Shown here: in pieces, positions 43,515 through 62,950 of the stretch
Layout of the letters: the number at the start of each line of letters is the position of its first letter
Position numbering within the stretch: position 1 is the first letter of the stretch
From: a virus
Strand: one strand, 5' to 3'
Virus record (IMG/VR): IMGVR_UViG_3300034105_002232
DNA: 64,000 nucleotides
Notes under the pieces: generated by a model
The model's database searches: none
What the model was told of the DNA's origin: nothing
The model's input: only the letters and a program-made list of their open reading frames with translations
Made by a program: the position numbers and the translations under genes

Positions 43515-43536
43515 TCTGTTACTCCTTGATAAAAAA

Positions 43537-43713: not shown

Positions 43714-43763
43714 ATTTCTTTCATGTGTGTTTGCTTACTTAGCTAACGAACTTGTATTTAAGG

Positions 43764-44093: not shown

Positions 44094-44114
44094 CTTATTA
44101 ATTACTGTACAACT

Positions 44115-44143
44115 ATTATAGCAAAATGGGTATTTAAAGTCAA
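44115..44143 (-). promoter_or_regulatory. sigma70 promoter
   Basis: TTGACT-17-TATAAT with TG extension. Confidence 0.75.
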
Positions 44144-44427
44144 CCTGATTTTTCGTTGCTATCTTTGTAATACTTTTGCTGCTTGTGCTTGCGTTCCTGC
44201 ATGGTTTCTTGGCCCAGGGCTCGTCGCGGATTCATGCACATGTAACATCGGGGATCACCGCAGTTCAGTATTGCGGTTTTGTGGTTTCTATGTGGCTGTT
44301 CAATGTATTTCCACTTGGTGCCTTGATGCATGGCATAGGATTTGGCAATACCAACTTGGCGTTGTATCTTGGTTTCGTCGTTGAATCTACGACGACTGTT
44401 GCGAAACTTATCTTCCTCATGAGACAT
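44140..44427 (-). CDS. basic hypothetical protein with CGxxxCxMC motif
   Basis: Start refined to MSHEED (the longer ORF overlaps tRNA-Ser); AGGAG RBS. Confidence 0.7.
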   Translation of the reverse strand: MSHEEDKFRNSRRRFNDETKIQRQVGIAKSYAMHQGTKWKYIEQPHRNHKTAILNCGDPRCYMCMNPRRALGQETMQERKHKQQKYYKDSNEKSG

Positions 44428-44443
44428 AGCTTGCTCCTTAAAT

Positions 44444-44533
44444 TGGCGGAAGCGGTGAGATTCGAACTCACGGACCCATCTCTGAATCACTAGTTTTCAA
44501 GACTAGAGCAATCGTCCACTCTGCCACACTTCC
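44444..44533 (-). tRNA. tRNA-Ser(UGA)
   Basis: Long variable arm, CTTGAAA loop, G73, CCA. Confidence 0.92.
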
Positions 44534-44551
44534 TTGCATTACTATTTAACC

Positions 44552-44629
44552 TGGAGCAACGGGCGTGATTCGAACACGCGGTTTTAGGGATTTGCAGTCC
44601 CTTGCATTGGGCCGCTCTGCCACCGTTGC
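44552..44629 (-). tRNA. tRNA-Cys(GCA)
   Basis: CTGCAAA loop, U73, CCA. Confidence 0.92.
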
Positions 44630-44639
44630 ATAAACTTTT

Positions 44640-44714
44640 TGGTCCGGCTAGCAGGAATCGAACCCACATTAAAGGAGTAGAAATCCTCTGTATTATCCAT
44701 TATACTATAGCCAG
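44640..44714 (-). tRNA. tRNA-Arg(UCU)
   Basis: TTTCTAC loop, cloverleaf, CCA. Confidence 0.88.
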
Positions 44715-45052
44715 ACTAAACCTGCATGTACTTCGGCGTGACAATTAGCACACAATAAAGTACATTTATTAATTTCTTTTCTTAACTGCTCTATAGGAGC
44801 ACCTCTTTTACCACTAATACCAAATTCTTTTATTGATGGATCAATGTGGTGCCACTGTAATGCCGCAAAAGATTTATCATACTTGCATCTTTCGCACTTG
44901 CCGCCACGCTCAATAATTAACTGGTCTAATTTATCTCTAGCAACTTTATAGGTTCGTTTATTCCAGCATTTTTTGCATTGATAACGATACCCCTTTGCAT
45001 AGAAATGCGATGCTCCTTCGATGCCGCAATCTTTACAGACATACTCTTTCAT
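44705..45052 (-). CDS. HNH endonuclease (free-standing, homing-type) in the tRNA cluster
   Basis: CKDC..CKKC, GGKCERC..ALQWHH.DP...C.LLCANCHAEVH; start refined to MKEYVC. Confidence 0.85.
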   Translation of the reverse strand: MKEYVCKDCGIEGASHFYAKGYRYQCKKCWNKRTYKVARDKLDQLIIERGGKCERCKYDKSFAALQWHHIDPSIKEFGISGKRGAPIEQLRKEINKCTLLCANCHAEVHAGLVWL

Positions 45053-45062
45053 TTTGCTCTCC

Positions 45063-45087
45063 TGGTTAGAGTATTTATCTCTAACCA
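45063..45087 (-). promoter_or_regulatory. hairpin with late-promoter loop abutting the HNH RBS
   Basis: TGGTTAGAG-ATAAATA-CTCTAACCA followed directly by GGAG. Confidence 0.65.
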
Positions 45088-45094
45088 AAGATCA

Positions 45095-45171
45095 TGGTGG
45101 GCCGGGTGAGACTCGAACTCACTGTCACCCGATTATGAGTCGGACGCTTATACCAGTTAAGCTTCCGGCCC
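45095..45171 (-). tRNA. tRNA-CAU, probably Ile2 (lysidine type)
   Basis: GGGCC 5' end, CCGAC-TCATAA-TCGG arm, CCA. Confidence 0.85.
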
Positions 45172-45224
45172 ACGAGTGCCCGCTTGATTACTAGAACTTA
45201 ATCTAGACCGCGCTACACAAAACT

Positions 45225-45307
45225 TGGTACCCGGAGCCGGACTTGAACCGGCACGCCATGAGCGGGAGATTTTAAGTCTCCTGTGTCTACCATTCCACCA
45301 CCCGGGC
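45225..45307 (-). tRNA. tRNA-Leu(UAA)
   Basis: CTTAAAA loop, variable arm, CCA. Confidence 0.92.
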
Positions 45308-45322
45308 AAAACTTTTAAAACT

Positions 45323-45396
45323 TGGTGCCCCTTGACAGAATCGAACTGCCAATTGATGATTACAAATCAACTGTTATACCATTTAACTAAAAGGGC
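45323..45396 (-). tRNA. tRNA-Thr(UGU)
   Basis: TTTGTAA loop, CCA. Confidence 0.9.
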
Positions 45397-45402
45397 AAAT
45401 CT

Positions 45403-45490
45403 TGGCGGAGAGTATAGGAATCGAACCTATCCACCGGTTACCCAGTGACAGTTTAGCAAACTGTTGCCTTAACCGCTCGGCCAACTCTCC
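45403..45490 (-). tRNA. tRNA-Ser(GCU)
   Basis: TTGCTAA loop, long variable arm, G73, CCA. Confidence 0.92.
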
Positions 45491-45502
45491 TAACTTGTTA
45501 CT

Positions 45503-45531
45503 ATTATATAGTGTAGTACCTTTAATGTCAA
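45503..45531 (-). promoter_or_regulatory. consensus sigma70 promoter of the tRNA operon
   Basis: TTGACA-17-TATAAT. Confidence 0.8.
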
Positions 45532-46241
45532 GCAGTTTGTATATATGGATAGATTCTACGTAAGTCTTTACCAGCTAGACTCACTAGCTCATCTTTCTGA
45601 GTGCTTCTGTTAACGGCTAAACACGGGTGTATAACGGTTCCAGATTTTAGGGTCAATCCTTCTCCAAACACTTGACAGCTAAGACCCACATAAACATTAT
45701 CTTCTAATGTGTTATAAACGTGAATACCTGCTTGCCGTTGTATTATACAATTTTTTCCAATAATGTTATGATGTCCAATTGCTGCATATGAAAAAATACC
45801 AGTAAAATCTCCAATGGTGTTATATCCAGAAATATAAACAAAAGAATCAATCAAAACATTTTTTCCAATAGAAACTGTTTTATGTACACAGGCAGTAGGA
45901 TCAACCACTGATATACATTCTAAATTATACATTTCTATCAGGTCTATGAACTTTTTTTTCTTTTGTCTATCCCTGGCTTGAATTGGATTTTTTTCACTGG
46001 TCCAGTTTACTACTAAAAAAAAGTTAAAGTTTGATTTGTAAAATTCAAGTAAATTACTATCTTTAAAATTCTCTTCTGTATCAATGACACTAATACCTTC
46101 AATGTTGTTGGTATTACCGTAATAATCATTGTCTATCAGACCGTGTACCTTGATATCTAATTTTTCAAATAGATCTTTATAATACCACAAAGCTGCATTA
46201 GATCCTAAAAATATTACAGGTTTACTATTATCGTTAATCAT
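45528..46241 (-). CDS. NeuD/PglD-like hexapeptide-repeat O-acetyltransferase
   Basis: N-terminal Rossmann-like domain, VDPTA.V...IG, IGH...IG left-handed beta-helix. Confidence 0.8.
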   Translation of the reverse strand: MINDNSKPVIFLGSNAALWYYKDLFEKLDIKVHGLIDNDYYGNTNNIEGISVIDTEENFKDSNLLEFYKSNFNFFLVVNWTSEKNPIQARDRQKKKKFIDLIEMYNLECISVVDPTACVHKTVSIGKNVLIDSFVYISGYNTIGDFTGIFSYAAIGHHNIIGKNCIIQRQAGIHVYNTLEDNVYVGLSCQVFGEGLTLKSGTVIHPCLAVNRSTQKDELVSLAGKDLRRIYPYIQTA

Positions 46242-46816
46242 TGATTAATAAAATAAGGTTTAAAAAAATTAACAGTTTCTTGCCAAGACGAAAAGGTAGA
46301 TGATTGAAATCTAAGACTAAACGTCCATCTATGTTGATTGCTATTATTTAAAATTCTATGAGGAATTGCTGCATTAATTAATGTTGGTTTTAAAATTTGA
46401 CAACGTTCAATTTCAGTTACTTCGTTGTCATCCCATTGCTGATATTCCATGTTGCTAAAATTCTTTTTAGATTGCGTAATCATGTCATGATTATTGGGCT
46501 GGTACCAAATCATATATGAATCTAGCCCACTTAATACCCAATTAACACCAATTTGGTTAGTACCAGGTGGCCCATCACGATGTATAATGCTGTTCATGTT
46601 GGGTGGACCACAAAAAAGATGACAATTGTTAATTTTTAATTTATGTTCGGCCGCCCAGTGTTGTATATCTAGATGCACTACTTCCAAATTTTTATCTTCA
46701 ACATAATGCCAGAGATACCATTTTTGTTGGTCAAAATTTTCTTGCTCGAGCGCAGGAAAAACAAAATTGTCTTTTAACGGATTAGTAAAAAAGTTCAATT
46801 CATGATAATTTTTCAT
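46238..46816 (-). CDS. cupin / 2OG-Fe(II)-oxygenase-like protein
   Basis: IHRD...PHRI...R facial-triad-like motif. Confidence 0.5.
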   Translation of the reverse strand: MKNYHELNFFTNPLKDNFVFPALEQENFDQQKWYLWHYVEDKNLEVVHLDIQHWAAEHKLKINNCHLFCGPPNMNSIIHRDGPPGTNQIGVNWVLSGLDSYMIWYQPNNHDMITQSKKNFSNMEYQQWDDNEVTEIERCQILKPTLINAAIPHRILNNSNQHRWTFSLRFQSSTFSSWQETVNFFKPYFINQ

Positions 46817-47873
46817 CTTGTACTGTATATTTTTCATACTTTGCTTTTTCGTTAAAAATATGTTCTCTATCTTTGTCAACTAGCCTAGCAAAATCATCTA
46901 GACTATATAATAACCCATTGTGTCTAATCTGAGAAGCTCTAAATGTCTGTGGAGTATTAAAAATTTTATTTAGATAACAAATGGTTCTTGCCATGGTACG
47001 TTTATCGCCATCTTTGACATTGGTAGGTCTTTTATGCAACGTTATTTCTTGATCCATGAATACAATTTGGCCATCTTGCCAATTTTGAGTATGCACATAT
47101 TCTTCTTTGTACACAACTTTTTTTAATTCGTCCATTATACGATTACTTTCTGCAATAGACATACCAACGAATCCGTCAAAACTATGACTAGGAATCTTCA
47201 TACCCGATAACCCAGTTGCTGTTTCTCTATACAGCCGAGTCTCCATGCCATCAATAGGAACCATGTTATAATGTATAATCAATGTTTGTACAGGATTCAA
47301 TCCAGGGGCCATCACATGATCAACCCACTTGTGTTTTACAAACAATTCTTTAACTGTGCTGCGCATGTCTGAGCTCAATGATTCATATGCATCGTGTGTG
47401 CATAAAAACTGCGTTTGACTGTTTACAGTATCGCTTATGCTTTTGAGACCAATGATCCGTTGCCCATCATCAAATGCACACTGATCGCTGTGCCAATCCA
47501 ATTCTCCATTTTGGAAGATTCCGGATGGTCTACCCTTGGGGCCTTTTTTATAACTCACCATGCTTACTGCCTTATGCATGTCGTTTCCTGCTGAATTACT
47601 GACGTAACCCAAGTTTACAAGAATTTCTCTCCAATGGCGGCCTTCAATTTTCTTTTCAGTCACATACTCGTGAATTAACGCTCTACTTGGATCACCCCAT
47701 TCTAACATACTTTTATACAACATTTCTGTGGTAATATCTTGTTCAACAACTACTATACACTGTGATGCACACAATTTACCCAATTCTGTAATCTCGTCCG
47801 GCGACGCCCAATCAATATCGTATGCCTCGAGGCCAACACTGGCCCCATAATTTTTCAATGGTCTGGTTTTCAT
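46800..47873 (-). CDS. TauD/TfdA-family 2OG-dependent dioxygenase
   Basis: WHSD, TQF...AY..L, WQDGQIVFMD...LHKR. Confidence 0.85.
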   Translation of the reverse strand: MKTRPLKNYGASVGLEAYDIDWASPDEITELGKLCASQCIVVVEQDITTEMLYKSMLEWGDPSRALIHEYVTEKKIEGRHWREILVNLGYVSNSAGNDMHKAVSMVSYKKGPKGRPSGIFQNGELDWHSDQCAFDDGQRIIGLKSISDTVNSQTQFLCTHDAYESLSSDMRSTVKELFVKHKWVDHVMAPGLNPVQTLIIHYNMVPIDGMETRLYRETATGLSGMKIPSHSFDGFVGMSIAESNRIMDELKKVVYKEEYVHTQNWQDGQIVFMDQEITLHKRPTNVKDGDKRTMARTICYLNKIFNTPQTFRASQIRHNGLLYSLDDFARLVDKDREHIFNEKAKYEKYTVQDEKLS

Positions 47874-47897
47874 TTTTATCCTTTAGTAAATATATTG

Positions 47898-48005
47898 CTA
47901 GTAGAAGTTCTACTCACGGACGGCGTTCCGCATAATCTAATGCGGTAAAGAGGTAGCTCCCCAAGCGTCTAATAGACCGACGTCAACACTATGTTGGCGC
48001 TGCAC
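47898..48005 (-). ncRNA. candidate structured 5' leader / ncRNA
   Basis: Four hairpins in a GC-rich 110-nt gap directly after TATAAATA. Confidence 0.4.
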
Positions 48006-48040
48006 TACTATTTATATTAGCGTAACAGTCCTGTCAACCT

Positions 48041-48604
48041 TTACATTGTAGGACCGTTACCGTTTTTAAATCCTACTTCACCACCTTCTGCAACGATACG
48101 CTTGATCACATCTTCAAACAGCACGGGTGCAAAGTCAGTTTGTTCTACGCAGACGCAATGGTATCTAGTATCAACCGCACCATCTTTCATTACTCTGTTA
48201 CTGTGCAGATGTCCATGTATATTAGTACCAAAACGGCCTAGGCTGTCCGAGTGAATAGGAATATGACTCAGTATCATTCCGTTCATCACGTGGTAGGCAC
48301 GTAATTCTCTAAAGTATTCGCGGTACTCGTCGTCACGGAAGATATCGTGATTACCACGTATCAGCACCTTGTCCCCGTTTAGGCGAGCCAATGTACTCAA
48401 TGCTCTACGATTGATCACAACATCACCCAGGTGATAAACTTTATCGTTGGGCCCAACACGCTCGTTCCAGGCCTTGACCATAAACTCATCCATTTCTTCT
48501 GGATCGTCCCAAGGACGCAGTTTGGTCACACCATCGTTGCGTAGGAATCTACATACGCCAGCATGACCAAAATGCGTGTCACTTACTAAAAATACTGCTG
48601 GCAT
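48041..48604 (-). CDS. calcineurin-like phosphoesterase
   Basis: SDTHFGH, HLGD, GNHD, HGHLH. Confidence 0.88.
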   Translation of the reverse strand: MPAVFLVSDTHFGHAGVCRFLRNDGVTKLRPWDDPEEMDEFMVKAWNERVGPNDKVYHLGDVVINRRALSTLARLNGDKVLIRGNHDIFRDDEYREYFRELRAYHVMNGMILSHIPIHSDSLGRFGTNIHGHLHSNRVMKDGAVDTRYHCVCVEQTDFAPVLFEDVIKRIVAEGGEVGFKNGNGPTM

Positions 48605-48620
48605 ATTCAACTCCTTTCTA

Positions 48621-48857
48621 TTATCCAAATATTGCTTTTATTACACGATAGTTTTTATCAGTGCCACGAACTTCTACCCGAGTCTTGTCAATTTCAGCTA
48701 GTTCTTGTGCTACCCCTTTAGCCCAGGGCAAAGGTAATTCTACTCGTTCATTGTCATGATCGGGATAGCGTAGCGGCATCCACTGTGCATACCCACCAAA
48801 TCCCTCAGCATTAGTTTCTGTTTGGGGATTGGCAAGCCAAATTTCATATAATGCCAT
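48621..48857 (-). CDS. hypothetical protein
   Basis: ORF with RBS. Confidence 0.6.
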   Translation of the reverse strand: MALYEIWLANPQTETNAEGFGGYAQWMPLRYPDHDNERVELPLPWAKGVAQELAEIDKTRVEVRGTDKNYRVIKAIFG

Positions 48858-48870
48858 AATACTTTCCTTT

Positions 48871-49176
48871 CTATGCTGTTATCCAACGTTCTTGTTCTTT
48901 TAAATATATTGATTCATTACCATCGTATTCATCTACACGAAACACAGTTCCCTCTGGTAACCATAGTATGGACAAATCTTTGAGCCCGCCTACGTAGGCA
49001 TCGGGATACTTCAGTGTTACGTAACTTAGAATTTTATCCGTTTCTTCGGCTTCTAGCCACGCCACAATGCTTGGATCAAAAAGCAATTCTTCAATCTGGT
49101 GACAACTATACCATCCGACACCATACTCGGGGCTATAAAGCACTGCCACTTGTCCGTCACGAATTACACGTTCCAT
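48871..49176 (-). CDS. hypothetical phage protein (VAVLYSP.YG.GW...EYDG.E)
   Basis: ORF with AGGAGG RBS. Confidence 0.75.
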   Translation of the reverse strand: MERVIRDGQVAVLYSPEYGVGWYSCHQIEELLFDPSIVAWLEAEETDKILSYVTLKYPDAYVGGLKDLSILWLPEGTVFRVDEYDGNESIYLKEQERWITA

Positions 49177-49199
49177 TATGCCCTCCTTTCTAAATATTT

Positions 49200-49291
49200 T
49201 GGTACCAGCGGAGGGAATCGAACCCTCTCAAGAACGCTAATCTGGCGCTAAAAGGTTTATAAAACCTCTCTGACTACCAAGTCTCGCTGGC
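49200..49291 (-). tRNA. non-canonical tRNA with UAU anticodon, minimal D-arm and long variable arm
   Basis: GCCAGCG/CGCTGGT-A-CCA; GACT-TGGT-AGTC; TTTATAA loop; GAGGG-TTCGATT-CCCTC. Confidence 0.75.
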
Positions 49292-49300
49292 AATTGTTTT

Positions 49301-49374
49301 TGGAGCGGGGTAGGAGAATCGAACTCCTCGCTTTAGCTTGGAAGGCTAAGGTATTACCACTATACGAACCCCGC
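49301..49374 (-). tRNA. tRNA-Gly(UCC)
   Basis: CTTCCAA loop, U73, CCA. Confidence 0.92.
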
Positions 49375-49383
49375 TTTAAAACT

Positions 49384-49458
49384 TGGTACACCGTAGGAGA
49401 ATCGAACTCCTCTTACCTGCGTGAAAGGGATGTGTCCTAACCAATAGACGAACGGTGC
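49384..49458 (-). tRNA. tRNA-Glu(UUC), anticodon stem with two mismatches
   Basis: CATCC-CTTTCAC-GCAGG. Confidence 0.75.
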
Positions 49459-49462
49459 ATAA

Positions 49463-49546
49463 ACCATATTGAAGCACACTTTAGATAAGCCCTATGCGTC
49501 CGACACGAATGCCACGCATCCAAGGCAAAATGTGTTTCAATATGGT
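49463..49546 (-). ncRNA. long hairpin RNA in the Leu-Glu tRNA spacer
   Basis: ACCATATTGAAACACA/TGTGCTTCAATATGGT outer stem, ATGCGT/ACGCAT, GGCA-TTCG-TGTC tip. Confidence 0.55.
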
Positions 49547-49626
49547 GCCTGGGGCGAGACTCGAACTCGCACGTCTCTCGACACTGGCTTCTAAGACCAG
49601 CATGGCTACCATTACATCACCCAGGC
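49543..49626 (-). tRNA. tRNA-Leu(UAG)
   Basis: CTTAGAA loop, variable arm, CCA. Confidence 0.92.
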
Positions 49627-52929: not shown

Positions 52930-54030
52930 ATGACAAACTACTGCCCTGAACTTTTCCAAACAATGTATGTGCAAAAACTCAATGAAAACGAAGTTAAGCT
53001 AGGTCATTGCTGTAACTCAGCAAGATCTGATCCAGTCTCAACAGTTGACATGCATCATGAATTCTTAAAGAAAGGAAGAGTGTTCTACTTAGAACACAAC
53101 AAGTTACCACCTGCCTGCAATATCTGCGTTGATTTAGAAAATAAAGGAATTTATACTCTTAGGCTACTTAGTTTAGAAAAAATTACACAAGAAGTAACAG
53201 TACCAAAACTTGAACTGTTGTTTTATAATTGTGATCCTATATGCAATCTAAAATGTATCATGTGCAACAGCGAATGGAGTTCGGCCTGGATCGATGACGA
53301 AATAAAACTTGGTATTCGATCAGATTTAAAAATAAATCGCACAAAAAATAACAATCTGTATCATGACATGGATCTTTCAAATTTGACTGCAATTCATTTT
53401 AATGGCGGCGAACCATTTATGACTCGGGATCATTTAAATTTATTAGCATTTGTCTGTCAAACCAGATCATCAAAAGACATAAGCGTAACCTACAACACCA
53501 ACGCCACGTGGCCAATTACTCAAGAGATAATTGACATGTGGGCCAAGTTTGGTGGAGTTACTGTGTTTTGCAGCATTGATGGTACCCATGAAGTATTTGA
53601 CTATGTTAGATACGGAGATTCTTGGCAAAATGTAGAGGCAAATATTAAAAGCTATCAGAATATAAAACTAGAACATTTTCAAATTGAAATACATGCTGCA
53701 ATAGGATTACATAATATTTTATACATTGATGAACTGTATTCGTGGGCTGATCAAAATAATCTTGAGTTGAAATTAGGATGTGTAACACATCCTTTAGAAA
53801 TTAAAAATTTTCCTTTTGCAGCAAAACAACAATTGATCAGTTACCTACATAGTCTGCCTAGTACAACAAACACACAAATAATTCTTAACGCTGCCAATGC
53901 CATAGACGAAAATTCAGATATTGGTTGGCTTTACTGGATTAAAAATCTTGACCGTATCAGAGGCAACAACTGGAAGCAGAGTCTGCATAAGTTGTACGAG
54001 CTGGATCCAGAATATTTTGATTCTATTTGA
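52930..54030 (+). CDS. radical SAM protein with N-terminal twitch-like domain
   Basis: CNLKCIMC, GGEPF, N-terminal CP..CC..CNIC. Confidence 0.88.
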   Translation: MTNYCPELFQTMYVQKLNENEVKLGHCCNSARSDPVSTVDMHHEFLKKGRVFYLEHNKLPPACNICVDLENKGIYTLRLLSLEKITQEVTVPKLELLFYNCDPICNLKCIMCNSEWSSAWIDDEIKLGIRSDLKINRTKNNNLYHDMDLSNLTAIHFNGGEPFMTRDHLNLLAFVCQTRSSKDISVTYNTNATWPITQEIIDMWAKFGGVTVFCSIDGTHEVFDYVRYGDSWQNVEANIKSYQNIKLEHFQIEIHAAIGLHNILYIDELYSWADQNNLELKLGCVTHPLEIKNFPFAAKQQLISYLHSLPSTTNTQIILNAANAIDENSDIGWLYWIKNLDRIRGNNWKQSLHKLYELDPEYFDSI

Positions 54031-54040
54031 AGCTCAAATC

Positions 54041-54124
54041 TGGTAGTAGACCAGGGATGAGGACCTCATCCTGCACCGGTCTCCGGGAATTATAAGGCCC
54101 CGCCGCATACCAATGCTGTCTACC
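54041..54124 (-). ncRNA. tRNA-like RNA (UAU loop, minimal D-arm, aberrant T-arm, encoded CCA)
   Basis: GGTAGAC/GTCTACT-A-CCA; GCAT-TGGT-ATGC; CTTATAA loop; T-arm replaced by a CAGGATGAG-GTC-CTCATCCCTG hairpin. Confidence 0.6.
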
Positions 54125-54154
54125 AATTTTGTAACACCTGCTGAAACTAGAGAC

Positions 54155-54179
54155 AAAAAGAAAGCCCTACAAGAGGGCT
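54155..54179 (-). terminator. intrinsic terminator after pqqA
   Basis: AGCCCT/AGGGCT stem followed by TTCTTTTT. Confidence 0.7.
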
Positions 54180-54199
54180 AACTTTTAGTTCTTTGTATA

Positions 54200-54274
54200 T
54201 TAGCGATTAGCAATGTACATTGTAATTTCAAAACCAAAACGTAAATCAATTGCTGCTGGTGTGGTCCATGCCAT
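54200..54274 (-). CDS. pqqA: pyrroloquinoline quinone precursor peptide PqqA ([24 protein letters not shown]), not in ORF track
   Basis: W..P...DLRFGFE-xxx-Y-xxNR signature; AGGAGA RBS 6 nt upstream; own terminator. Confidence 0.93.
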
Positions 54275-54398
54275 TTTAAATCTCCTTGTAAGTTTACATA
54301 CTGCATTAGTATGTATGATTATAATACACTAAAATACCGTATAATAACATCCTGGCGATCATGATTTTGCACTACGTCAATTCATTAGACAGCGCGAA

Positions 54399-55037
54399 CT
54401 ATTTCTGCATTAATTTGTCAACAAATTCAAGCAGCAGGTGATGCTGACCACCTGTCCATTTGTTTTGCATCCAGGAATAGCTGTTGTACCAGTGGCGATC
54501 TGCTTCGGGATGGCATCCAATCAAGCCTACACGATCTTGCATGACAGCCATTGGTGCTCCGTTGGGGTAACTGGCCACTGTGTCGTACTGGCCATCACCC
54601 ATATAGGTGCAACCATCGTAAAAGTACATGTGGGTTGGGTGGTTGTTCCAGGTCACTGGCATATGTTTGGCATGCGGTCTATGCGTGTCTGTGCCAGGGC
54701 TTCGAATGTACTGTATTGCTCTAACACGGTCAAGCAAGCCAAAGTAATTGGTATCGGCCCAATATGCCCCCATGCAAATGCCAAGATACCTACCACCGTT
54801 GGCTACAAAATTACGTATACGTTGCCCATTAACTTGCATCAATTGATCAAATGAATCTGAGTCACCAAAGCCGCCGGGGACGCAGACCAGATCTACGTCA
54901 TCAAAGAAATCGTTTTCTAATTCATGTCGGGTAAAAATTTTAAAATCGTAGTGTGCGCTCAAGGCTCGGATTATGCCATTGCCGCTTTGCACTGAACATT
55001 TGGGTTGATGCAAGAACAGTGCTATCTTGGGTTTCAT
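54399..55037 (-). CDS. GATase-like protein (BPL_N family)
   Basis: VPGG, GGRYLGICMGAY, GCHPE. Confidence 0.8.
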   Translation of the reverse strand: MKPKIALFLHQPKCSVQSGNGIIRALSAHYDFKIFTRHELENDFFDDVDLVCVPGGFGDSDSFDQLMQVNGQRIRNFVANGGRYLGICMGAYWADTNYFGLLDRVRAIQYIRSPGTDTHRPHAKHMPVTWNNHPTHMYFYDGCTYMGDGQYDTVASYPNGAPMAVMQDRVGLIGCHPEADRHWYNSYSWMQNKWTGGQHHLLLEFVDKLMQK

Positions 55038-55052
55038 TTATGTACTTATGTC

Positions 55053-55076
55053 AAAACAAAGCCCCTAAGGGCTTTT
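55053..55076 (-). terminator. intrinsic terminator after the plcP-GT unit
   Basis: AAAGCCC/GGGCTTT stem plus GTTTT. Confidence 0.7.
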
Positions 55077-55132
55077 GTATGGTAACTGGTTACGAGTTCC
55101 AGCGGTGCTCTATCGTTGCACCCGATTTAAAC

Positions 55133-55843
55133 CTAATTCCAGTATTTGGTATGATCCAATCTATCCCAATATTGTTTATTATTGCGATTAACAAAGTTTC
55201 TAATTAGATACGTTGCCATTCCAAAATAACCCATTTTTTTAAATCTTCTTGAGTCTTGTCCAAAATAGTGATCAACAATTCTAAATTTTTTTGTACTGTA
55301 CATTCTTGAAAGAAAGAAATCCTCAGAGGTTACATAGCGTTCAGAAAACCCACTATATTCCTCAAATTTAGTCTTACTAGTTAGCATAAATGCACCAACA
55401 GCAAATGGGACAAAATATTTAAATACTCCGTTCACAAAGTTAAAAATCATGAAACTTATATTGGCTCTGTGATCGTTGTCGTAACAATAAATTTTTGCCG
55501 TAATTAAATCTAAATTGTAAAACTCAATTTCATCTACAGTATCTTGAATTACTGTGTCTCTAAAAAATTGAACATCAGAATCGATGAACAAAATGTAAGG
55601 TGTCGTGGCCAACCGTGCACCGTTGTTCCTGGCTACAGAAACTGTGCCACCATTGATTATTTCTACATTTAAAAAAGCACTGTTGGCTTGTATAACCTGT
55701 CTTGTGTTATCGGTAGAACTATCAGCAATAATGATTCTAGTATCTCCAAGTTTTTGCAATCTCAGTGAGTCTAATAAATGATGAATATACGTTTCTTCAT
55801 TGCGACAAGGTACTACAATTGTAATTTTATCACTTAGTTTCAT
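55133..55843 (-). CDS. family 2 glycosyltransferase
   Basis: IVVPCRNEE, IIAD.STD.T, ARNNGA, FIDSD, SED. Confidence 0.9.
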   Translation of the reverse strand: MKLSDKITIVVPCRNEETYIHHLLDSLRLQKLGDTRIIIADSSTDNTRQVIQANSAFLNVEIINGGTVSVARNNGARLATTPYILFIDSDVQFFRDTVIQDTVDEIEFYNLDLITAKIYCYDNDHRANISFMIFNFVNGVFKYFVPFAVGAFMLTSKTKFEEYSGFSERYVTSEDFFLSRMYSTKKFRIVDHYFGQDSRRFKKMGYFGMATYLIRNFVNRNNKQYWDRLDHTKYWN

Positions 55844-56009
55844 TTTTAATACATTTTCCTTCTATTCGAAAAGAATCAAATTTTATCCAATATGTCATTG
55901 ATTGCAAACTAGTCTCGCAACTGAGTTGATCCGGAAATTCCAACATCACTCTGCCCGGAATGTCCTTTGGATCTTTTAGGTGCACCACTATCAATATCAT
56001 CAACCACAT
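55830..56009 (-). CDS. small secreted/membrane protein with two Cys
   Basis: Start refined to MWLMIL; overlaps the 3' end of the phosphoesterase gene. Confidence 0.5.
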   Translation of the reverse strand: MWLMILIVVHLKDPKDIPGRVMLEFPDQLSCETSLQSMTYWIKFDSFRIEGKCIKNETK

Positions 56010-56760
56010 TGTCTGTCTCCTGTGTCCAAGTAATAATTTCCCAACGGCCATCATGATGTTCCACTAGTGCAGTCATGCTTTCCACCCAATCGCCATCATT
56101 CATGTATATGATGCCATCTATTTCTTTTATTTCTGCATGATGAATATGACCACATATCACTCCATCAAAGCCACGCTTGCTGCAATAGCCAGCAAGATTA
56201 TGCTCAAACTGAAAAATAAAGTCCACGGCTTTTTTGACCTTATGCTTGAGATAAAAAGATAAACTCCAATAACCAAAGCCCATCCTACGACGAAGCCAAT
56301 TAAAACGGCTGTTAACACTGAGAATAACATCATATGCCTTGTCTCCCAAAAAACCCAACCAAGGAGCCAGTCTGGTAATGCCATCAAACAAGTCGCCGTG
56401 TGTGACCAAGTAATGCTTACCGTCCACTCCAATGTGTTCGGATTGATTTGCTATTTCTATTAGACCAAATCCTGGATCATATTGCATAAAGGGTCTGAGA
56501 AATTCATCATGATTGCCTGCCACATACACTACTCGGGTACCACGTTTGGCATGCCCCAGTACTCGACGAACTACATTGGTATGACTTTGTTTCCAACGCC
56601 ATTTGTTTTGTTTAATCTTCCATGCATCAATTATATCACCTACAAGATACAGTGTTTCGCATGAGTTATTTTTAAGGAAATTGTTAAGTGCTTCGGCCTT
56701 GCAATCTTTGGTCCCTAAATGAACATCTGAAATAAAGATAGTGCGATGTGTCTTGTTCAT
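55909..56760 (-). CDS. LpxH-like metallophosphoesterase, PlcP-type phospholipase C candidate
   Basis: RTIFISDVHLG, LYLVGDIID.W, GNHD, HGD.FD, DGVICGHIHHA, NDGDWVES.TALVE. Confidence 0.8.
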   Translation of the reverse strand: MNKTHRTIFISDVHLGTKDCKAEALNNFLKNNSCETLYLVGDIIDAWKIKQNKWRWKQSHTNVVRRVLGHAKRGTRVVYVAGNHDEFLRPFMQYDPGFGLIEIANQSEHIGVDGKHYLVTHGDLFDGITRLAPWLGFLGDKAYDVILSVNSRFNWLRRRMGFGYWSLSFYLKHKVKKAVDFIFQFEHNLAGYCSKRGFDGVICGHIHHAEIKEIDGIIYMNDGDWVESMTALVEHHDGRWEIITWTQETDNVVDDIDSGAPKRSKGHSGQSDVGISGSTQLRD

Positions 56761-56782
56761 AATAATATTTAAGGTCTTTAAG

Positions 56783-56800
56783 ATTACAAACCCATTACAA
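56783..56800 (-). promoter_or_regulatory. Pho box upstream of the plcP-like gene
   Basis: TTGTAAT-GGGT-TTGTAAT direct repeat with 11-bp period. Confidence 0.65.
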
Positions 56801-56804
56801 AGTC

Positions 56805-56834
56805 AAATAAAAAGCCCTTCCGGGCTTTTTATTT
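56805..56834. terminator. bidirectional intrinsic terminator after the porin
   Basis: AAATAAAAAGCCC-TTCC-GGGCTTTTTATTT. Confidence 0.8.
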
Positions 56835-56840
56835 TTGGTA

Positions 56841-58244
56841 CTAGAAACTTATTTGACTTCTTAGCATGACTGCTTTTTCACCAGTTACTCTACTGCCTGA
56901 CGCACCCACTGGGGCATTGAATTTGGTGTCTACATAATTGACCATGAATCGAACATTGTCATTCAAAAACCAAGTAATACCGTATGTGATCGCTGTGGCT
57001 TGATTGGCTTTGCCTGCTACTACGGCAATAGTTTCAGCATCGAACTCACTAGATCTAATACCTACCTGCCATGCTCCAGGACCACCACTGGTAAATGCAT
57101 TGTTTGGTTTGATCCAACCAAATGTGCCATCTTTGTAAGCATGACTTTCTCCGGTTAAATTGTATACCAACTGAACATAGTTACCTTTCACTTCTTGATT
57201 GGATCCTGTGGCTGGGTCGTATTTGTAATTAAACTGCTCGCCCTGTACTTTCAGGCCTTTCCAAGCAAACGCTGCCTCAATGCCTTGGCGTGTTCTTGCA
57301 GTGTCGCCGCTTAGAGCTGACCCTGTGAACCAGGCACTTTGTTGACGAGCTTCAGTACGACCACTGGAAGGAGTTACTCCAGTCTTTACATCACCAGTAC
57401 TGTACGCTGCACCCAAATGAGCCACAAAGTCTTTGTTCTGAATCAACTCAGCAAAGTTTGTGGTCACACGTCCAATAATATCTACACCATCTACAGTGGT
57501 AGTCTTGTTGGCACGACCACGACTTGCAGCCAGTGCATAAGTTATACCTGCTCTAGGCACACCGTGTAACATGATGCCTGTTTCTTTAGCTGGAATAAAC
57601 TCACCTTCAGTTTGTCCAATTAGGCTACGCTCCATGAAGTCAATGTTGTTGGAGCTGGTCAATTGCTCTAGACTGAACGGCATCTTGAAAGTACCAAACT
57701 GAAGTTGCATTACCGGATTGGCAGCATAATTGACCCAGAACTCATCTATTGTGGATGTGGTAGAACTGGCACCAACATCATTTCCAAAGTTTGCTAGCAA
57801 CTGATATTTGAAGTCTTTGGCAATCTGTCCTCTAACTCCAAAGCGACCACGTCTAACTTCTAATGCATCTTGATATGGGTCTGTGGTTTGACCTGCACCG
57901 TACACTGGACTATAACTTCTATAATCCATGTGAATTCTACCTGTGAATTGTGCAGTGGTATTTCCGTCTTTGGATTTGATTCCTAGTCCGTTTTCCATTA
58001 CAGCACCATCACTGGCTTTACTTAGTCTGTAGTTGTTGTTGTCTCGCAGGTCTTTGTCCACACGAGAAGAATTAAACTGTGCATTTTCTACTTTGTCTTT
58101 GTGTGCTTCCACTTTGGTAGCATGCTCTTCCTTGGTTAATATTCCTTTTTGCAAAAGAATATCCAAGGTGTCTGTGTAATCATCTGCCATTGCAGGTGAC
58201 GCAAAGCATAGTGCTAAGAGTGATATAATAGTAATTTTTTTCAT
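56841..58244 (-). CDS. phosphate-selective porin (OprO/OprP family)
   Basis: Signal peptide, GRIHMDY, RRGRFGV.G, G.FKMPFSLE.LTSS..IDFMERS, C-terminal F. Confidence 0.88.
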   Translation of the reverse strand: MKKITIISLLALCFASPAMADDYTDTLDILLQKGILTKEEHATKVEAHKDKVENAQFNSSRVDKDLRDNNNYRLSKASDGAVMENGLGIKSKDGNTTAQFTGRIHMDYRSYSPVYGAGQTTDPYQDALEVRRGRFGVRGQIAKDFKYQLLANFGNDVGASSTTSTIDEFWVNYAANPVMQLQFGTFKMPFSLEQLTSSNNIDFMERSLIGQTEGEFIPAKETGIMLHGVPRAGITYALAASRGRANKTTTVDGVDIIGRVTTNFAELIQNKDFVAHLGAAYSTGDVKTGVTPSSGRTEARQQSAWFTGSALSGDTARTRQGIEAAFAWKGLKVQGEQFNYKYDPATGSNQEVKGNYVQLVYNLTGESHAYKDGTFGWIKPNNAFTSGGPGAWQVGIRSSEFDAETIAVVAGKANQATAITYGITWFLNDNVRFMVNYVDTKFNAPVGASGSRVTGEKAVMLRSQISF

Positions 58245-58252
58245 AATATTCC

Positions 58253-59278
58253 TTATTTCCAGATTGCTTGACCGCTAGGGTCTTTAAGTTCTTTTTTCCA
58301 GTTGTCCTGCACCAGTTTAATCACTGAAGCTGGCATGTGTACGTACTCTAATTCCTCACTCATCTTGGAACCGTTTTTGTAGCTCCAGTCAAAGAATTTT
58401 AGTATTGCGCGGCCTGTTAGTAGATCGGCTTGTTGCTTGTGCATTATGATAAAGCTGGCACCTGTTGCTGGCCATGAATCTTTACCAATTTGATTTGTCA
58501 ACAACAAATACATGCCTGGAGCATTGTCCCAATCTGCATTGGCAGCTGCCGCTTTAAATGCTTCGTCGCTTGGCTGAACAAAGTTTCCATCACGATTCTT
58601 CAATTGAGCGTGAGCAATCTTGTTCTTTTTAGCATAGGCGTATTCCACATAACCAAATGCACCTTTGATTCTTTGTACCTGCGCTGCAACACCTTCGTTG
58701 CCCTTGCCGCCAATACCCACAGGCCACTTGACTGCTGTAGCAGCACCAATCACTTTACCAAATTCTGCATTAGTTTTGCTTAGATAATCACACCAGATGA
58801 ATGTTGTACCTGATCCATCAGCACGATGTACAACTGTGATTGGTAGTGCGGGTAAAGTAACGCCAGGATTCAAGCTGGTAATGGCCTGATCGTTCCATTT
58901 AGTAATTTTACCCAAATGGATATTGGCAATCACATCACTGGTAAGTTTCAATTGCCCTGGAGCAATACCGTCTAGATTTACTACTGGAACTACACCACCA
59001 ATAATAGCTGGGAATTGCATTAGACCTTCTTTTTCTAGGTCTTCTGGTTTCAATGGCATATCACTTGCGCCAAAGTCCACTGTCTTGGCTTTGATCTGTT
59101 TGATACCACCACCTGAACCGATGGATTGATAGTTGAGTCCGATGCCGGTTGCTGCTTTATACGCTTCTGCCCACTTTGAATAGATAGGATAAGGAAATGT
59201 TGCTCCTGCTCCTGTTAAGTCTGCTGCTGCTACTTGACCTGTTAATGCAATCAGTAACATTGCTAATAGTTTTTTCAT
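58253..59278 (-). CDS. pstS: phosphate ABC transporter substrate-binding protein
   Basis: GAGATFPYP, NYQSIGSGGG, DFGASD, RADGSGTT, KGNEGV, GYVEY. Confidence 0.96.
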   Translation of the reverse strand: MKKLLAMLLIALTGQVAAADLTGAGATFPYPIYSKWAEAYKAATGIGLNYQSIGSGGGIKQIKAKTVDFGASDMPLKPEDLEKEGLMQFPAIIGGVVPVVNLDGIAPGQLKLTSDVIANIHLGKITKWNDQAITSLNPGVTLPALPITVVHRADGSGTTFIWCDYLSKTNAEFGKVIGAATAVKWPVGIGGKGNEGVAAQVQRIKGAFGYVEYAYAKKNKIAHAQLKNRDGNFVQPSDEAFKAAAANADWDNAPGMYLLLTNQIGKDSWPATGASFIIMHKQQADLLTGRAILKFFDWSYKNGSKMSEELEYVHMPASVIKLVQDNWKKELKDPSGQAIWK

Positions 59279-59330
59279 TTTTTAATCTCCGTAAAATATG
59301 CGATGCATACTATTATTTAAACATACTAGT

Positions 59331-59348
59331 ATTACAAGCGTGTTACAA
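59331..59348 (-). promoter_or_regulatory. Pho box upstream of pstS
   Basis: TTGTAAC-ACGC-TTGTAAT, 11-bp period. Confidence 0.7.
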
Positions 59349-59390
59349 AACCAAGAATTTTTAAAATATTTGTAATATATTTTTGCCATA

Positions 59391-59415
59391 AAAAAAGGCA
59401 GCATTGCGCTGCCCT
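59391..59415 (-). terminator. intrinsic terminator insulating pstS
   Basis: AAGGCAGC/GCTGCCTT stem plus T tract. Confidence 0.75.
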
Positions 59416-59436
59416 TCCTACTCAGTTGAACTAGAA

Positions 59437-59706
59437 TTAGTCAACTAGACCCATTGCAATTGCCTTGTAACCAGCTGACACCAACGCACGACTGGCCTTA
59501 CCATGACGGTATTCAGTGACACGAACACCGTTACTTGCTTTGCGGGTGTTTGCATATACTGGAAATCCAGCATAACGAATTTCGCTAACGGTAGCACGTG
59601 GGTTCTTGATCCCAAATTTCTTTTGAATCTGGCTAGCAGTTAGTGCTTCTCCTTCAATGACGAGAGCTTGGAACAACTTACCTTGTTTTGTTTTTAAATC
59701 AAACAT
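59437..59706 (-). CDS. small winged-HTH DNA-binding protein
   Basis: LTASQIQKKFGIKNPRATVSEIR..G..V. Confidence 0.65.
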   Translation of the reverse strand: MFDLKTKQGKLFQALVIEGEALTASQIQKKFGIKNPRATVSEIRYAGFPVYANTRKASNGVRVTEYRHGKASRALVSAGYKAIAMGLVD

Positions 59707-59783
59707 TTATATCTCCTATGTGGTTGATAGCTGTACGACAGCATCATTACATTATATACAGTTGTTTTGGTAAATGCAACAAC

Positions 59784-59963
59784 TTATTTTACCGTTTTGT
59801 CTTTTTGTTTTTCCAAACTCCAAGAGCCGTCACCGCGATCAATCCATTTGAGAGTGTCACCTTCTGTCCAGCCGGCTTCGGCCAATAGGTCAGGTGGGAA
59901 TGGTAGGATAAGTTCTCCAGTATCAGGATCTTCCTCTAATGTTATAGTCCAGGTCTTATCCAA
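59784..59963 (-). CDS. AbrB/MazE/SpoVT-like small protein (59 aa), not in ORF track
   Basis: GELILPFPPDLLAEAGWTEGDTLKW; TTG start. Confidence 0.7.
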   Translation of the reverse strand: MDKTWTITLEEDPDTGELILPFPPDLLAEAGWTEGDTLKWIDRGDGSWSLEKQKDKTVK

Positions 59964-60216
59964 TTTGTTCTACCCGAGTAACATTGGCAACCTTGAAACT
60001 GCGCCATTCGTTTTTATCAGTGCACCAAACACTAAGATTGTCTGGGTTTTCTTTACGTGTGTTTTCTTCTCCTGGGTCTTTGACCGTAAAGGCCGGCAGC
60101 ACACCTGATTTGAGTGTACACGGCATGGTGCGAGTTTCACCGTTTACTTTGGTAAATGTAACTTCGCAGATGCTTTCACGCAACATGTTCACAATGTGTT
60201 CTCTATTCAACTCCAT
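59956..60216 (-). CDS. WYL-like SH3-fold phage protein
   Basis: V.FTKVNGETRTM.CTL...W....EWRSF. Confidence 0.75.
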   Translation of the reverse strand: MELNREHIVNMLRESICEVTFTKVNGETRTMPCTLKSGVLPAFTVKDPGEENTRKENPDNLSVWCTDKNEWRSFKVANVTRVEQIG

Positions 60217-62339: not shown

Positions 62340-62368
62340 ATTATAGCAAATGATGAATTTATTGTCAA
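62340..62368 (-). promoter_or_regulatory. consensus sigma70 promoter
   Basis: TTGACA-17-TATAAT. Confidence 0.8.
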
Positions 62369-62369
62369 T

Positions 62370-62396
62370 AAAAATAGCACCCTAGGGTGCTATTTT
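62370..62396 (-). terminator. terminator of the tmRNA gene
   Basis: AAAATAGCACCCTAGGGTGCTATTTT palindrome. Confidence 0.8.
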
Positions 62397-62399
62397 AGC

Positions 62400-62776
62400 T
62401 ATTTGTTAACAAGGCGCCGCCCCCGGGTCTAGAGTTTCTTAGGCTGCTAGTAAAACTGCTGAGTCATTTGCAGCAACACGGCCAAAAAAGGCAGCTTTGC
62501 TTACAGTAACTTTTACAGTACCATTTGTATTTGCGTTTGCATTTACGAGTTTTGCTTGATTTACAGTCATCGCCTACTGTGCTGTCCATATCCTTACTTG
62601 ATGCCCAATCGAAACCTGGTCGCCCCCATCAGAAGTACTCTTGATCTCCAGTTTACCGGTGGGGATCAATCCACTTTCAACCTTCTCCGATCCGGCGTCC
62701 CGTTTAGAATACTTTTGGTGGAGGCGAGGGGAATCGAACCCCTGTCTTGAACACCTTTCATTCTACTTCATACAAC
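62400..62776 (-). ncRNA. ssrA: circularly permuted (two-piece) tmRNA
   Basis: Acceptor piece ...GACAGGGGTTCGATTCCCCTCGCCTCCACCA (CCA at 62716-62718) precedes the coding piece GGGGGCGACCAGGTTTCGA (G1 at 62627); G3-U70 pair; tag ORF 62439-62540 ends in LAA. Confidence 0.9.
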
Positions 62777-62782
62777 AATTCT

Positions 62783-62950
62783 TTACTTTACTTCTCTAAG
62801 TTCACATCTGGCTTTGATGGCGTTTTCTCTGTGATGCATGATTGCTCGCACAATTTCCTCACATTCAGTCCGGCGTGTATAACTGCGCCAATCTCGCTCA
62901 ACTCCATCGGCAACGACCAAAACCACCAAGACCCAAACCCAAATATCCAT
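62783..62950 (-). CDS. small protein with hydrophobic N-terminus and two Cys (55 aa), not in ORF track
   Basis: MDIWVWVLVVLVVADG...CEE...ARCELR; manual translation. Confidence 0.5.
   Translation of the reverse strand: MDIWVWVLVVLVVADGVERDWRSYTRRTECEEIVRAIMHHRENAIKARCELREVK

Follow-up and report, generated by a model that had tools for sequence, protein, structure and literature searches.

Around the locus analyzed here, the window (the whole 64 kb stretch of DNA) carries phage hallmark genes (tail fibre, baseplate, prohead protease and DNA ligase, with 13 tRNAs and a tmRNA) indicative of a large phage. The module itself consists of four ORFs, all on the minus strand, arranged as a pstS-porin unit (unit 1, 59278..56841) and a metallophosphoesterase-GT2 unit (unit 2, 56760..55133). 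Upstream of both units lies a TGTAAY-N5-TGTAAY repeat followed by a TAAATA box, and three terminator hairpins, each with a U-run behind it, flank the two units (Table 1). RNA folding revealed all three of these hairpins, none of which was picked up by a consensus terminator scan; the one ahead of unit 1 closes an upstream gene of 89 aa and insulates the module. The initial annotation had described a pair of units that are each preceded by a repeat of 11-bp period and bounded by terminators, and both this layout and its ORF boundaries were reproduced.

Table 1. Features of the two-unit module and its flanks, in the direction of transcription
Feature	Position	Strand	Basis or remark
Terminator hairpin + U7	59392..59418	-	-16.3 kcal/mol, then UUUUUUU
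Pho-box-like direct repeat 1, TGTAAC-N5-TGTAAT, 11-bp period, TGTAACacgctTGTAAT	59331..59347	-	exact match
TAAATA -10-like box, unit 1	59314..59319	-	11 nt after repeat 1, 35 nt before pstS ATG
pstS, putative periplasmic phosphate-binding protein, Sec signal peptide	58253..59278	-	NF008171, TIGR00975, phrog_5385
Putative OprO/OprP-family phosphate-selective porin, signal peptide	56841..58244	-	PF07396, 149 bits
Intrinsic terminator 3' of porin gene	56805..56834	-	-17.2 kcal/mol, z -4.9, U-run
Pho-box-like direct repeat 2, TGTAAT-N5-TGTAAT, TGTAATgggttTGTAAT	56783..56799	-	exact match
TAAATA -10-like box, unit 2	56766..56771	-	11 nt after repeat 2, 5 nt before plcP ATG
Predicted PlcP-type Mn-metallophosphoesterase (phospholipase C of lipid renovation)	55909..56760	-	profile, tree, motifs
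Small soluble GT2 (GT-A fold) glycosyltransferase, agt slot	55133..55843	-	PF00535, motifs, synteny
Conserved two-hairpin element, 3' edge of GT cassette	55086..55126	-	conservation, covariation
Terminator hairpin + UUUGUUUUG, end of plcP-GT2 unit	55058..55075	-	-11.9 kcal/mol, z -2.6

The first product of unit 1 meets the equivalog cut-off for PstS (NF008171, 429 bits against 339; TIGR00975, 379 bits). The second, a putative porin, meets the criteria of the OprO/OprP family by its Porin_O_P domain, its signal peptide and its homology to the solved structures of OprP (2o4v, E 6.6e-18) and OprO (4rjw), both at about E 1e-17; an RR pair aligns to the RR of OprP, anion selectivity being no more than an inference. 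The two genes are separated by only 8 nt with an AAGGA ribosome site inside, and the porin gene is translationally coupled to pstS. An OprO/P-type porin gene likewise occurs in large freshwater phages, as the oprP of amoC-phages; phage oprP is already known from this one 2026 preprint (bioRxiv 10.64898/2026.06.18.733297), in the text of which the terms pstS, LpxH, lipid and Pho box do not appear.

Esterase and glycosyltransferase of unit 2

The esterase matches PF00149 and PF12850 and retains all five metal motifs (DVH 12-14, GDIID 41-45, GNHD 82-85, HGD 121-123 and GHIHH 204-208). Its scores against the LpxH equivalog models did not meet the cut-offs (45.6 bits against 134 for NF003743, 37.2 against 190 for TIGR01854). 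An LpxH equivalog HMM run on 41 gammaproteobacterial genomes gave a bimodal distribution, with true LpxH at 207-328 bits and paralogues at 26-60, and in phmmer comparisons the esterase scored 190-340 bits with PlcP-like proteins versus 15-35 bits with true LpxH. In a maximum-likelihood tree, true LpxH separated with 100% SH-aLRT support, and the phage clade (98%) was nested among bacterial PlcP-like proteins. This tree contained no experimentally characterized PlcPs; the case for PlcP membership is built from clade, motif and synteny together with the identity ranges in the literature. The GNHD motif, present in the window esterase, is shared by 46/48 PlcP-like and 13/15 phage proteins, as opposed to GNRD in 22/23 true LpxH. 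Homologues, nearly all of them 43-58% identical, were found in 108 of 301 alphaproteobacterial genomes, and the closest bacterial relatives (52-60%) belong to plcP-agt operons; characterized PlcPs share 46-51% identity with one another (PMC8528852, PMC9239053). A GT4 gene immediately follows the homologue in 8 of the 9 bacterial loci examined, in agreement with the published plcP-agt gene order (PMC4796936). The closest solved structure is that of LpxH, with the same calcineurin-like fold and an inserted lipid-binding cap, from which the esterase is set apart by its clade, its motif and its score below the family cut-off. Overall, the phylogeny, scores and motif uphold the earlier suggestion of a PlcP-like protein rather than LpxH: judged by its sequence, the esterase is of the PlcP type and clearly not a true LpxH, with phospholipid cleavage inferred.

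The second gene of unit 2 encodes a 236-aa GT2 protein (PF00535, 79.6 bits) with DxD (D88, D90), ED (E174-D175) and conserved basic RRFKK motifs. Across 80 related loci, the slot located ~75 nt 3' of plcP is occupied in 41 by a GT4 agt, whose product is a known type of diacylglycerol glycosyltransferase, in 29 by the GT2, and in none by both, so that this synteny survey places GT2 exactly in the agt slot of sister phages, as befits the glycosyltransferase partner of the PlcP-like gene that it had been proposed to be. A comparison of the window with a collinear relative, L064, revealed that homology stops exactly at the GT start codon and restarts at the two-hairpin element, which is 96% identical in L064. 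This element is found, once in each locus, in 38 of 83 sources, with compensatory changes in 6 of 9 predicted pairs. Assignment of GT2 to the Agt family was rejected, as its fold is GT-A and not the GT-B combination of Glyco_transf_4 and Glycos_transf_1. GT2 replaces agt in place, holding the position of Agt without being its homologue; its putative role in glycolipid synthesis is inferred.

It is possible, although unlikely, that PlcP acts as proposed while GT2 merely shares its operon and modifies a different acceptor, perhaps so as to shut out superinfecting phages; LPS core or O-antigen, a surface polymer and a polyprenyl phosphate are candidates. The best solved-structure matches of GT2 are TarP and TarS (wall-teichoic-acid enzymes) and a polyprenyl-phosphate mannosyltransferase, its PHROG matches are GtrB-like O-antigen conversion enzymes, and one bacterial homologue (35% identity) does not adjoin plcP; moreover, no similarity to characterized diacylglycerol glycosyltransferases was detectable (Pgt, MgdA and MPN483 were not directly compared). 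On the other hand, such an acceptor would leave unaccounted for the mutual exclusivity of agt and GT2, the clean replacement between collinear genomes and the persistence of the arrangement in distant GT2 homologues (40-44% identity), which also lie directly 3' of PlcP homologues, and GT2 lacks the transmembrane helices typical of GtrB. Diacylglycerol glycosyltransferases of the GT-A fold do exist in the GT21/GT2 families (Pgt of Mesorhizobium and Agrobacterium, cyanobacterial MgdA and Mycoplasma MPN483), although the phage GT2 is much shorter. A partial match to the Pfam GT21 family PF13506 (29.1 bits versus a gathering threshold of 21.7; positions 25-144 of 174) is weaker than that to PF00535; 89% of the bacterial structural neighbours of GT2 are PF13506.

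The module has in common with bacterial PlcP-Agt operons (S. meliloti SMc00171, Phaeobacter MED193, SAR11 HTCC7211, P. aeruginosa PA3219-PA3218 and B. cenocepacia BCAL2364-2365) an LpxH-like GNHD metallophosphoesterase, a glycosyltransferase after it and a Pho box upstream, and sister phages carry the GT4 agt itself. It differs from them in being phage-encoded, in the unrelated GT2 that stands in the window for GT4 Agt, and in a plcP mRNA that is probably leaderless and driven from a phage TAAATA box. The plcP gene is present on more than 597 IMG/VR contigs; the module is real and widespread, a variant of the bacterial PlcP-Agt pathway.

Repeats and promoters

Exact matches to TGTAAY-N5-TGTAAY in the 64 kb, both strands included, are limited to the two repeats of the module (0.11 expected). 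In the window together with the 80 related loci (~1.1 Mb), 39 of 41 repeat copies are directly upstream of plcP or pstS, 27 of them directly 5' of plcP; the copy upstream of pstS is kept in 11 of 19 distinct related loci, and the spacing from repeat to TAAATA is fixed. A Pho box comprises two 7-bp direct repeats with an 11-bp period, situated ~10 bp upstream of the -10 box in place of a -35 element. Both sites of the window meet this architecture, as TTGTAAC-N4-TTGTAAT and TTGTAAT-N4-TTGTAAT. Their TGTAAY half-sites are not those of the E. coli consensus, TGTCAY, but match those of the closest bacterial pstS genes (59-64% identity), in which TGTAAC, TGTAAT and TGTCAT are found with the same period; the boxes of bacterial plcP genes are of the TGTCAY type. 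These observations support the view, first put forward in the initial annotation, that the repeats fit Pho boxes, at least to the extent that they behave as regulon-specific Pho-box-like sites; PhoB binding and Pi-dependent transcription are inferred.

The TAAATA box is enriched 5' of 23 of 90 genes of this phage, structural genes included; it is a general promoter box of the phage rather than a module-specific one and resembles T4-type late promoters. A GGAG ribosome site lies between this box and the pstS ATG. In unit 2 the box is so close to the start codon (5 nt; 4-7 nt in related loci) that the plcP mRNA is probably leaderless or near-leaderless. If a phage sigma factor reads TAAATA, classical PhoB-sigma70 activation need not hold.

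In a rather unlikely alternative, the repeats would be bound by a regulator other than PhoB, one encoded by the phage or another member of the OmpR family, or would only form part of a late-type promoter timed by the phage, in which case expression would track the infection clock and not phosphate status. The broad occurrence of TAAATA with its T4-like character, the departure from the E. coli consensus and the ~25 related loci in which a hairpin element replaces the box ahead of plcP could all be accommodated by this alternative, but the near-restriction of the repeats to plcP and pstS, the same half-sites in the nearest bacterial pstS genes and the Pho-box period and distance (10-12 nt) to the -10 box could not readily be. 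Control by host PhoB also has a precedent in cyanophages, whose pstS and phoA auxiliary genes are reportedly governed by host PhoR-PhoB. The two systems share a phage pstS behind a host-type Pho box, and differ in the host (here inferred to be a Gram-negative heterotroph) and in the outer-membrane porin and lipid-remodelling pair added by this module.

Probable use of host membrane phosphorus

The phosphorus-related auxiliary genes known from phages (pstS, phoH, phoA) work at the level of uptake. In a starved cell, the phospholipids of the membrane represent one of the larger stores of phosphorus. The presence of phosphate-uptake genes together with PlcP-type and sugar-adding enzymes behind two control sites suggests that the phage probably mines the host membrane for phosphorus. 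With unit 1, the infected cell would gain a phosphate-binding protein in the periplasm and, in the outer membrane, a phosphate channel of the OprO/P type. The PlcP-type enzyme would cut the phospho-head group off host glycerophospholipids to leave diacylglycerol, to which GT2 would most likely add a sugar, yielding a phosphorus-free glycolipid; both activities are inferred. Host phosphatases are presumed to free Pi from the released head groups, and this phosphorus could then enter phage DNA synthesis. As both units start at a Pho-box-type repeat 11 nt upstream of TAAATA, host phosphorylated PhoB would be expected to turn the module on under host phosphate starvation.

While no experimental data are available, we consider it likely that the locus is such a phage-borne phosphate-starvation module, with two units, a lipid swap and PhoB control; what can be read from the DNA itself is the identity of the genes, the distinction of PlcP from LpxH, the regulon-specific conservation of the repeats and the replacement of agt by GT2. 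A broader proposal, that a widespread lineage of large freshwater phages converts the phospholipids of phosphate-starved hosts to glycolipids, freeing phosphorus for phage DNA, by means of two interchangeable glycosyltransferase cassettes, the 236-aa GT2 being a hitherto unrecognized family of diacylglycerol glycosyltransferases, is offered tentatively. If true, a phage-borne PlcP pathway would constitute an internal phosphorus source beyond the uptake genes. Genomes of a few hundred kilobases are costly in phosphorus. The small GT2 for which agt has been swapped in place is a concrete candidate, and one cheap to follow up, for a new family of lipid glycosyltransferases. With promoters whose Pho boxes are conserved, control of the phage genes by the host can be put to a direct test, and glycolipid signals of phosphorus-limited lakes may be partly virus-driven.

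We find it improbable that the lipid swap is real but serves another benefit, such as receptor display, exclusion of competitor phages or envelope properties suited to lysis or assembly. Lipid remodelling in bacteria does alter phage adsorption and predator susceptibility, according to two reports (PMC9938194, PMC9457565), but the plcP-GT2 pair is linked both physically and by its regulation to pstS and the phosphate porin, and a genome this large points to a heavy demand for phosphorus. Finally, the assignment of the esterase to true LpxH or LpxG of lipid A synthesis, for which automatic JGI and GenBank names and a 27-bit, N-terminal-half match to LpxH structures speak, is practically untenable in view of the scores, tree and motif given above, which separate the esterase from LpxH, and of a Sandarakinorhabdus (alphaproteobacterial) genome, the one searched, in which the homologue is present and true LpxH was not found.

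A literature search found no paper on a phage PlcP. GenBank phages label plcP as LpxH, as do JGI/IMG automatic names, and since the gene is filed as lpxH on hundreds of viral contigs, it is overlooked in surveys of viral auxiliary genes. In the Pelagibacter phage Mosig, a plcP homologue is divergent from pstS.

Composition of the module and identity of its esterase

The phage module is real, conserved and widespread: it is a variant of the bacterial PlcP-Agt lipid renovation system combined with phosphate-uptake genes, under promoters of the Pho-box type for which the binding of PhoB is inferred, and its glycosyltransferase cassette in the window is the GT2 form. These functions are encoded by four co-oriented minus-strand genes that together span 59278 to 55133 (see the table). 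Both PstS and the porin start with Sec-type signal peptides, and the 8-nt gap between their genes contains an AAGGA ribosome site. The setting is that of a large phage (tail-fibre and baseplate proteins, prohead protease, ATP-dependent DNA ligase and radical-SAM enzymes; GC content 40.6%). An origin in host DNA was rejected because phage genes lie on both flanks of the module and because it recurs on >597 viral contigs of IMG/VR, with esterases 77-95% identical to that of the window; 80 of these loci were examined. Next to the module is a gene of the BPL_N (class-I glutamine-amidotransferase-like) type; roughly half of the related loci likewise have one no more than a few kb away from plcP.

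Coordinates of the module and associated features (window positions unless a locus is named)
Feature	Position	Strand	Details
pstS		-	341 aa; NF008171 429 bits vs cut-off 339
OprO/P porin		-	467 aa; PF07396 149 bits; solved OprP and OprO matched at E ~1e-17
plcP (LpxH-like metallophosphoesterase)	55909..56760	-	283 aa; profile matches
GT2	55133..55843	-	236 aa; PF00535 79.6 bits
Repeat 1	59347..59331	-	precedes pstS
Repeat 2	56799..56783	-	precedes plcP
Two-hairpin element	55086-55126	-	also L053:9902-9942, L064:9904-9944, L058:7953-7993 and others
BPL_N-type gene	54399-55037	-	212 aa; PF09825 43 bits
TAAATA-preceded genes (examples)	6144, 14987 (15989-side), 16687, 35091, 56760
tRNA genes and tmRNA	42848-49626 and 62348-62809	-	13 tRNA genes in two arrays; permuted (two-piece) tmRNA with long predicted tag
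Divergent box TGTGAC-N5-CGTTAC			upstream of pstS in L058, L070, L093, L101, L128; upstream of plcP in L074
Third repeat in related locus L062	L062:4016-4032		TGTAAT-N5-TGTAAT
Esterase homologue of phage Mosig (L001)	MT647606.1 94129-94866

The initial annotation had described the LpxH-like esterase as a PlcP-like enzyme, and several lines of analysis agree with this description. The LpxH equivalog model scores the window protein at 45.6 bits, far below its cut-off of 134. The same model is bimodal over 41 gammaproteobacterial genomes (including one unpublished genome, G342), with 207-328 bits for true LpxH and 26-60 bits for a second paralogue. A Cellvibrionaceae genome encodes both proteins, and the paralogue is present without a true LpxH in the genomes of an alphaproteobacterial Sandarakinorhabdus and of a Leptospira. 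By phmmer, the phage esterase matches the paralogues with 190-340 bits and true LpxH with only 15-35 bits. In the phylogeny against LpxH that had been proposed as a check (a quick maximum-likelihood tree, 72 proteins), a very long branch with 100% SH-aLRT support sets true LpxH apart, and the phage esterases form a clade (98% support) nested among the bacterial PlcP-like paralogues. All five metallophosphoesterase motifs are intact in the phage protein; one of the motifs reads GNHD in most paralogues (46 of 48) and most phage proteins (13 of 15), as opposed to GNRD in true LpxH (22 of 23). The possibility that the gene encodes a true LpxH was rejected on the basis of its score, the tree split and this signature.

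The closest cellular relatives of the esterase (52-60% identity) are mostly alphaproteobacterial, and a homologue, nearly always at 43-58% identity, is present in 108 of 301 alphaproteobacterial genomes (one of them, G243, unpublished). A GT4 gene directly follows the homologue in 8 of the 9 bacterial loci tested, which is the same as the published "type 2" arrangement of plcP followed by agt (PMC4796936). Since the characterised PlcPs are only 46-51% identical among themselves (PMC8528852, PMC9239053), the phage esterase falls inside the identity range of the family. Judged by its sequence, the esterase is of the PlcP type and not LpxH, with the reservation that the tree left out the experimentally characterised PlcPs. 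The G342 locus is likewise absent from the tree, and none of the conclusions rests on G342 or G243.

Pho-box-like repeats and transcription units

The repeat TGTAAY-N5-TGTAAY occurs exactly twice on both strands of the 64-kb window (0.11 copies expected), and among the 41 copies found in the 80 related loci together with the window (2.25 Mb, both strands counted) 27 are directly upstream of plcP and 12 directly upstream of pstS. A TAAATA box is located 11 nt downstream of each of the two window repeats, a distance that is constant (10-12 nt) in the related loci. This spacing agrees with the known layout of a Pho box, in which two repeats of 7 bp, separated by 4 bp, lie ~10 bp upstream of the -10 box (consensus cited in PMC8528852). 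Bacterial plcP promoters have boxes of the TGTCAY type (one of them being CTGTCACAAAACTGTAAT), and the nearest bacterial pstS genes, whose products are 59-64% identical to that of the phage, are preceded by boxes with an 11-bp period that mix TGTAAC, TGTAAT and TGTCAT; the pstS box of the comparison locus L176, TTTGTAACACGACTGTCAT, nearly matches the window box TTTTGTAACACGCTTGTAAT. TGTAAY is therefore a natural half-site in a canonical Pho-regulon gene of related bacteria. The earlier claim that the repeats fit PhoB boxes is thus supported by their plcP/pstS-specific placement, their layout and the half-sites shared with bacterial pstS: the repeat behaves as a putative Pho box, the binding of PhoB itself being inferred.

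As many as 23 of the 90 window genes (~2 expected), structural genes included, have a TAAATA no more than 60 nt upstream; TAAATA is therefore a general -10-like box of this phage, the repeats being the module-specific part. For plcP the gap between TAAATA and ATG is only 5 nt and a Shine-Dalgarno sequence is absent; the short spacing recurs in related phages, and the transcript is probably leaderless. Five genes of the window have TAAATA merely 4-6 nt before the start codon, which suggests that leaderless mRNAs recur in this phage and that the promoter is T4-late-like.

The predicted organisation into two transcription units, each with an upstream 11-bp-period repeat and bounded by hairpins, was confirmed in that the repeats are exact and three hairpins with U-runs could be folded at the unit borders (-16.3, -17.2 with z -4.9, and -11.9 kcal/mol). 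A consensus terminator scan of the window picked up none of the three, so that direct folding was needed. An Rfam search of positions 54000-60000 returned nothing meaningful, its sole match being a sub-threshold SraG.

Two variations of the repeat were seen in related loci. In one subclade it is replaced by a divergent box of the same 11-bp period (xGTxAC half-sites), and in L062 a third copy is located just past GT2, upstream of a gene for a 153-aa signal-peptide protein, which may also belong to the phage Pho-controlled set.

The glycosyltransferase slot and its border

A synteny survey of the 80 related phage loci, also suggested in the initial annotation, showed that the slot ~75 nt 3' of plcP is occupied by a GT4 agt gene in 41 loci and by GT2 in 29, never by both (7 loci have neither and 3 are truncated). 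Identity between the phage agt homologues and the bacterial operon partner is 38-45%, and agt is also present in L053, whose PlcP (95%) is more similar to that of the window than any other. The window and the related locus L064 share a collinear stretch comprising the gene that precedes pstS, then pstS, porin and plcP; their DNA homology reaches the GT start codon, vanishes over the GT gene and returns (96% identity) in a hairpin element of 41 nt that lies just 3' of this gene. PlcP (44-49%) and GT2 (40-43%) are adjacent again in more distant pairs, and one bacterial GT2 homologue (35% identity) does not adjoin plcP. As far as gene order and sequence comparison can tell, the change from agt to GT2 is a non-orthologous replacement in place.

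The GT2 family is largely viral and consists of ~230-245-aa proteins with a conserved DxD motif, ED pair and basic RRFKK segment. A single-sequence model reached only pLDDT 32, and the alignment-based model (pLDDT 95) was used instead; it shows a plain GT-A fold and no transmembrane helices. Comparison with the PDB gave TarP, TarS and PcManGT at TM 0.6-0.7 and did not discriminate the acceptor. That GT2 glycosylates diacylglycerol remains an inference, and the strongest argument for it at present is the in-place replacement.

The edge of the swapped cassette coincides with the conserved two-hairpin element (~41 nt, invariant ATCG...CTGGA...CGTAACCAG). Of 83 sources, 38 have the element, with a single copy in each locus and always in the orientation of the operon; it lies either ~10 nt before the plcP ATG (replacing the Pho box) or immediately 3' of the GT gene. 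Compensatory changes affect 6 of its 9 predicted pairs, and it has no Rfam match. It is reminiscent of the promoter-stem-loop borders of cassettes in T4-type phages; alternatively, it could serve as a signal for RNA processing or for translation.

Proposed role and distribution

In the proposed mechanism, host phosphate starvation would, by inference, cause PhoB~P to switch on both promoters. PstS and the porin would capture more phosphate across the outer membrane and periplasm, and PlcP would strip phospho-head groups off host phospholipids, with Pi freed from the cleaved head groups by host phosphatases. GT2 is presumed to turn diacylglycerol into glycolipid, so that the membrane would stay intact until lysis, and the freed phosphorus is inferred to be used for phage DNA. 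Phage pstS genes and the control of pstS by host PhoB are already known from cyanophages. Our literature searches found no report of a phage-encoded PlcP. The presence of oprP in freshwater amoC-phages is described in a June 2026 preprint (bioRxiv 10.64898/2026.06.18.733297), the text of which does not contain the terms pstS, LpxH, lipid or Pho box.

A search of GenBank phage DNA identified only Pelagibacter phage Mosig, in which the esterase homologue (49% identity) is divergently adjacent to pstS. A second homologue from a cultured phage is that of Synechococcus phage S-SRM01 (L166); the gene goes undiscussed in the paper on that phage. The two homologues, each annotated as UDP-2,3-diacylglucosamine hydrolase/diphosphatase, fall inside the PlcP-like clade. 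The OprO/P porin has no tblastn match in 50,697 GenBank phage records and the baseplate protein is likewise without a GenBank phage match; this lineage therefore has no cultured relative among them. Host clues from the protein atlas were no finer than Pseudomonadota, and the genomes with the closest PstS gave porin matches of 25-30% only.

Short contigs of public MAGs labelled Haliscomenobacter (L002, an 18.5-kb contig; Bacteroidota), Gammaproteobacteria (L003) and Chitinophagia (L051; Bacteroidota) also carry a plcP of the phage type (73-82% identity), and the neighbouring genes are of the phage type too; these are probably phage contigs mis-binned into bacterial genomes.
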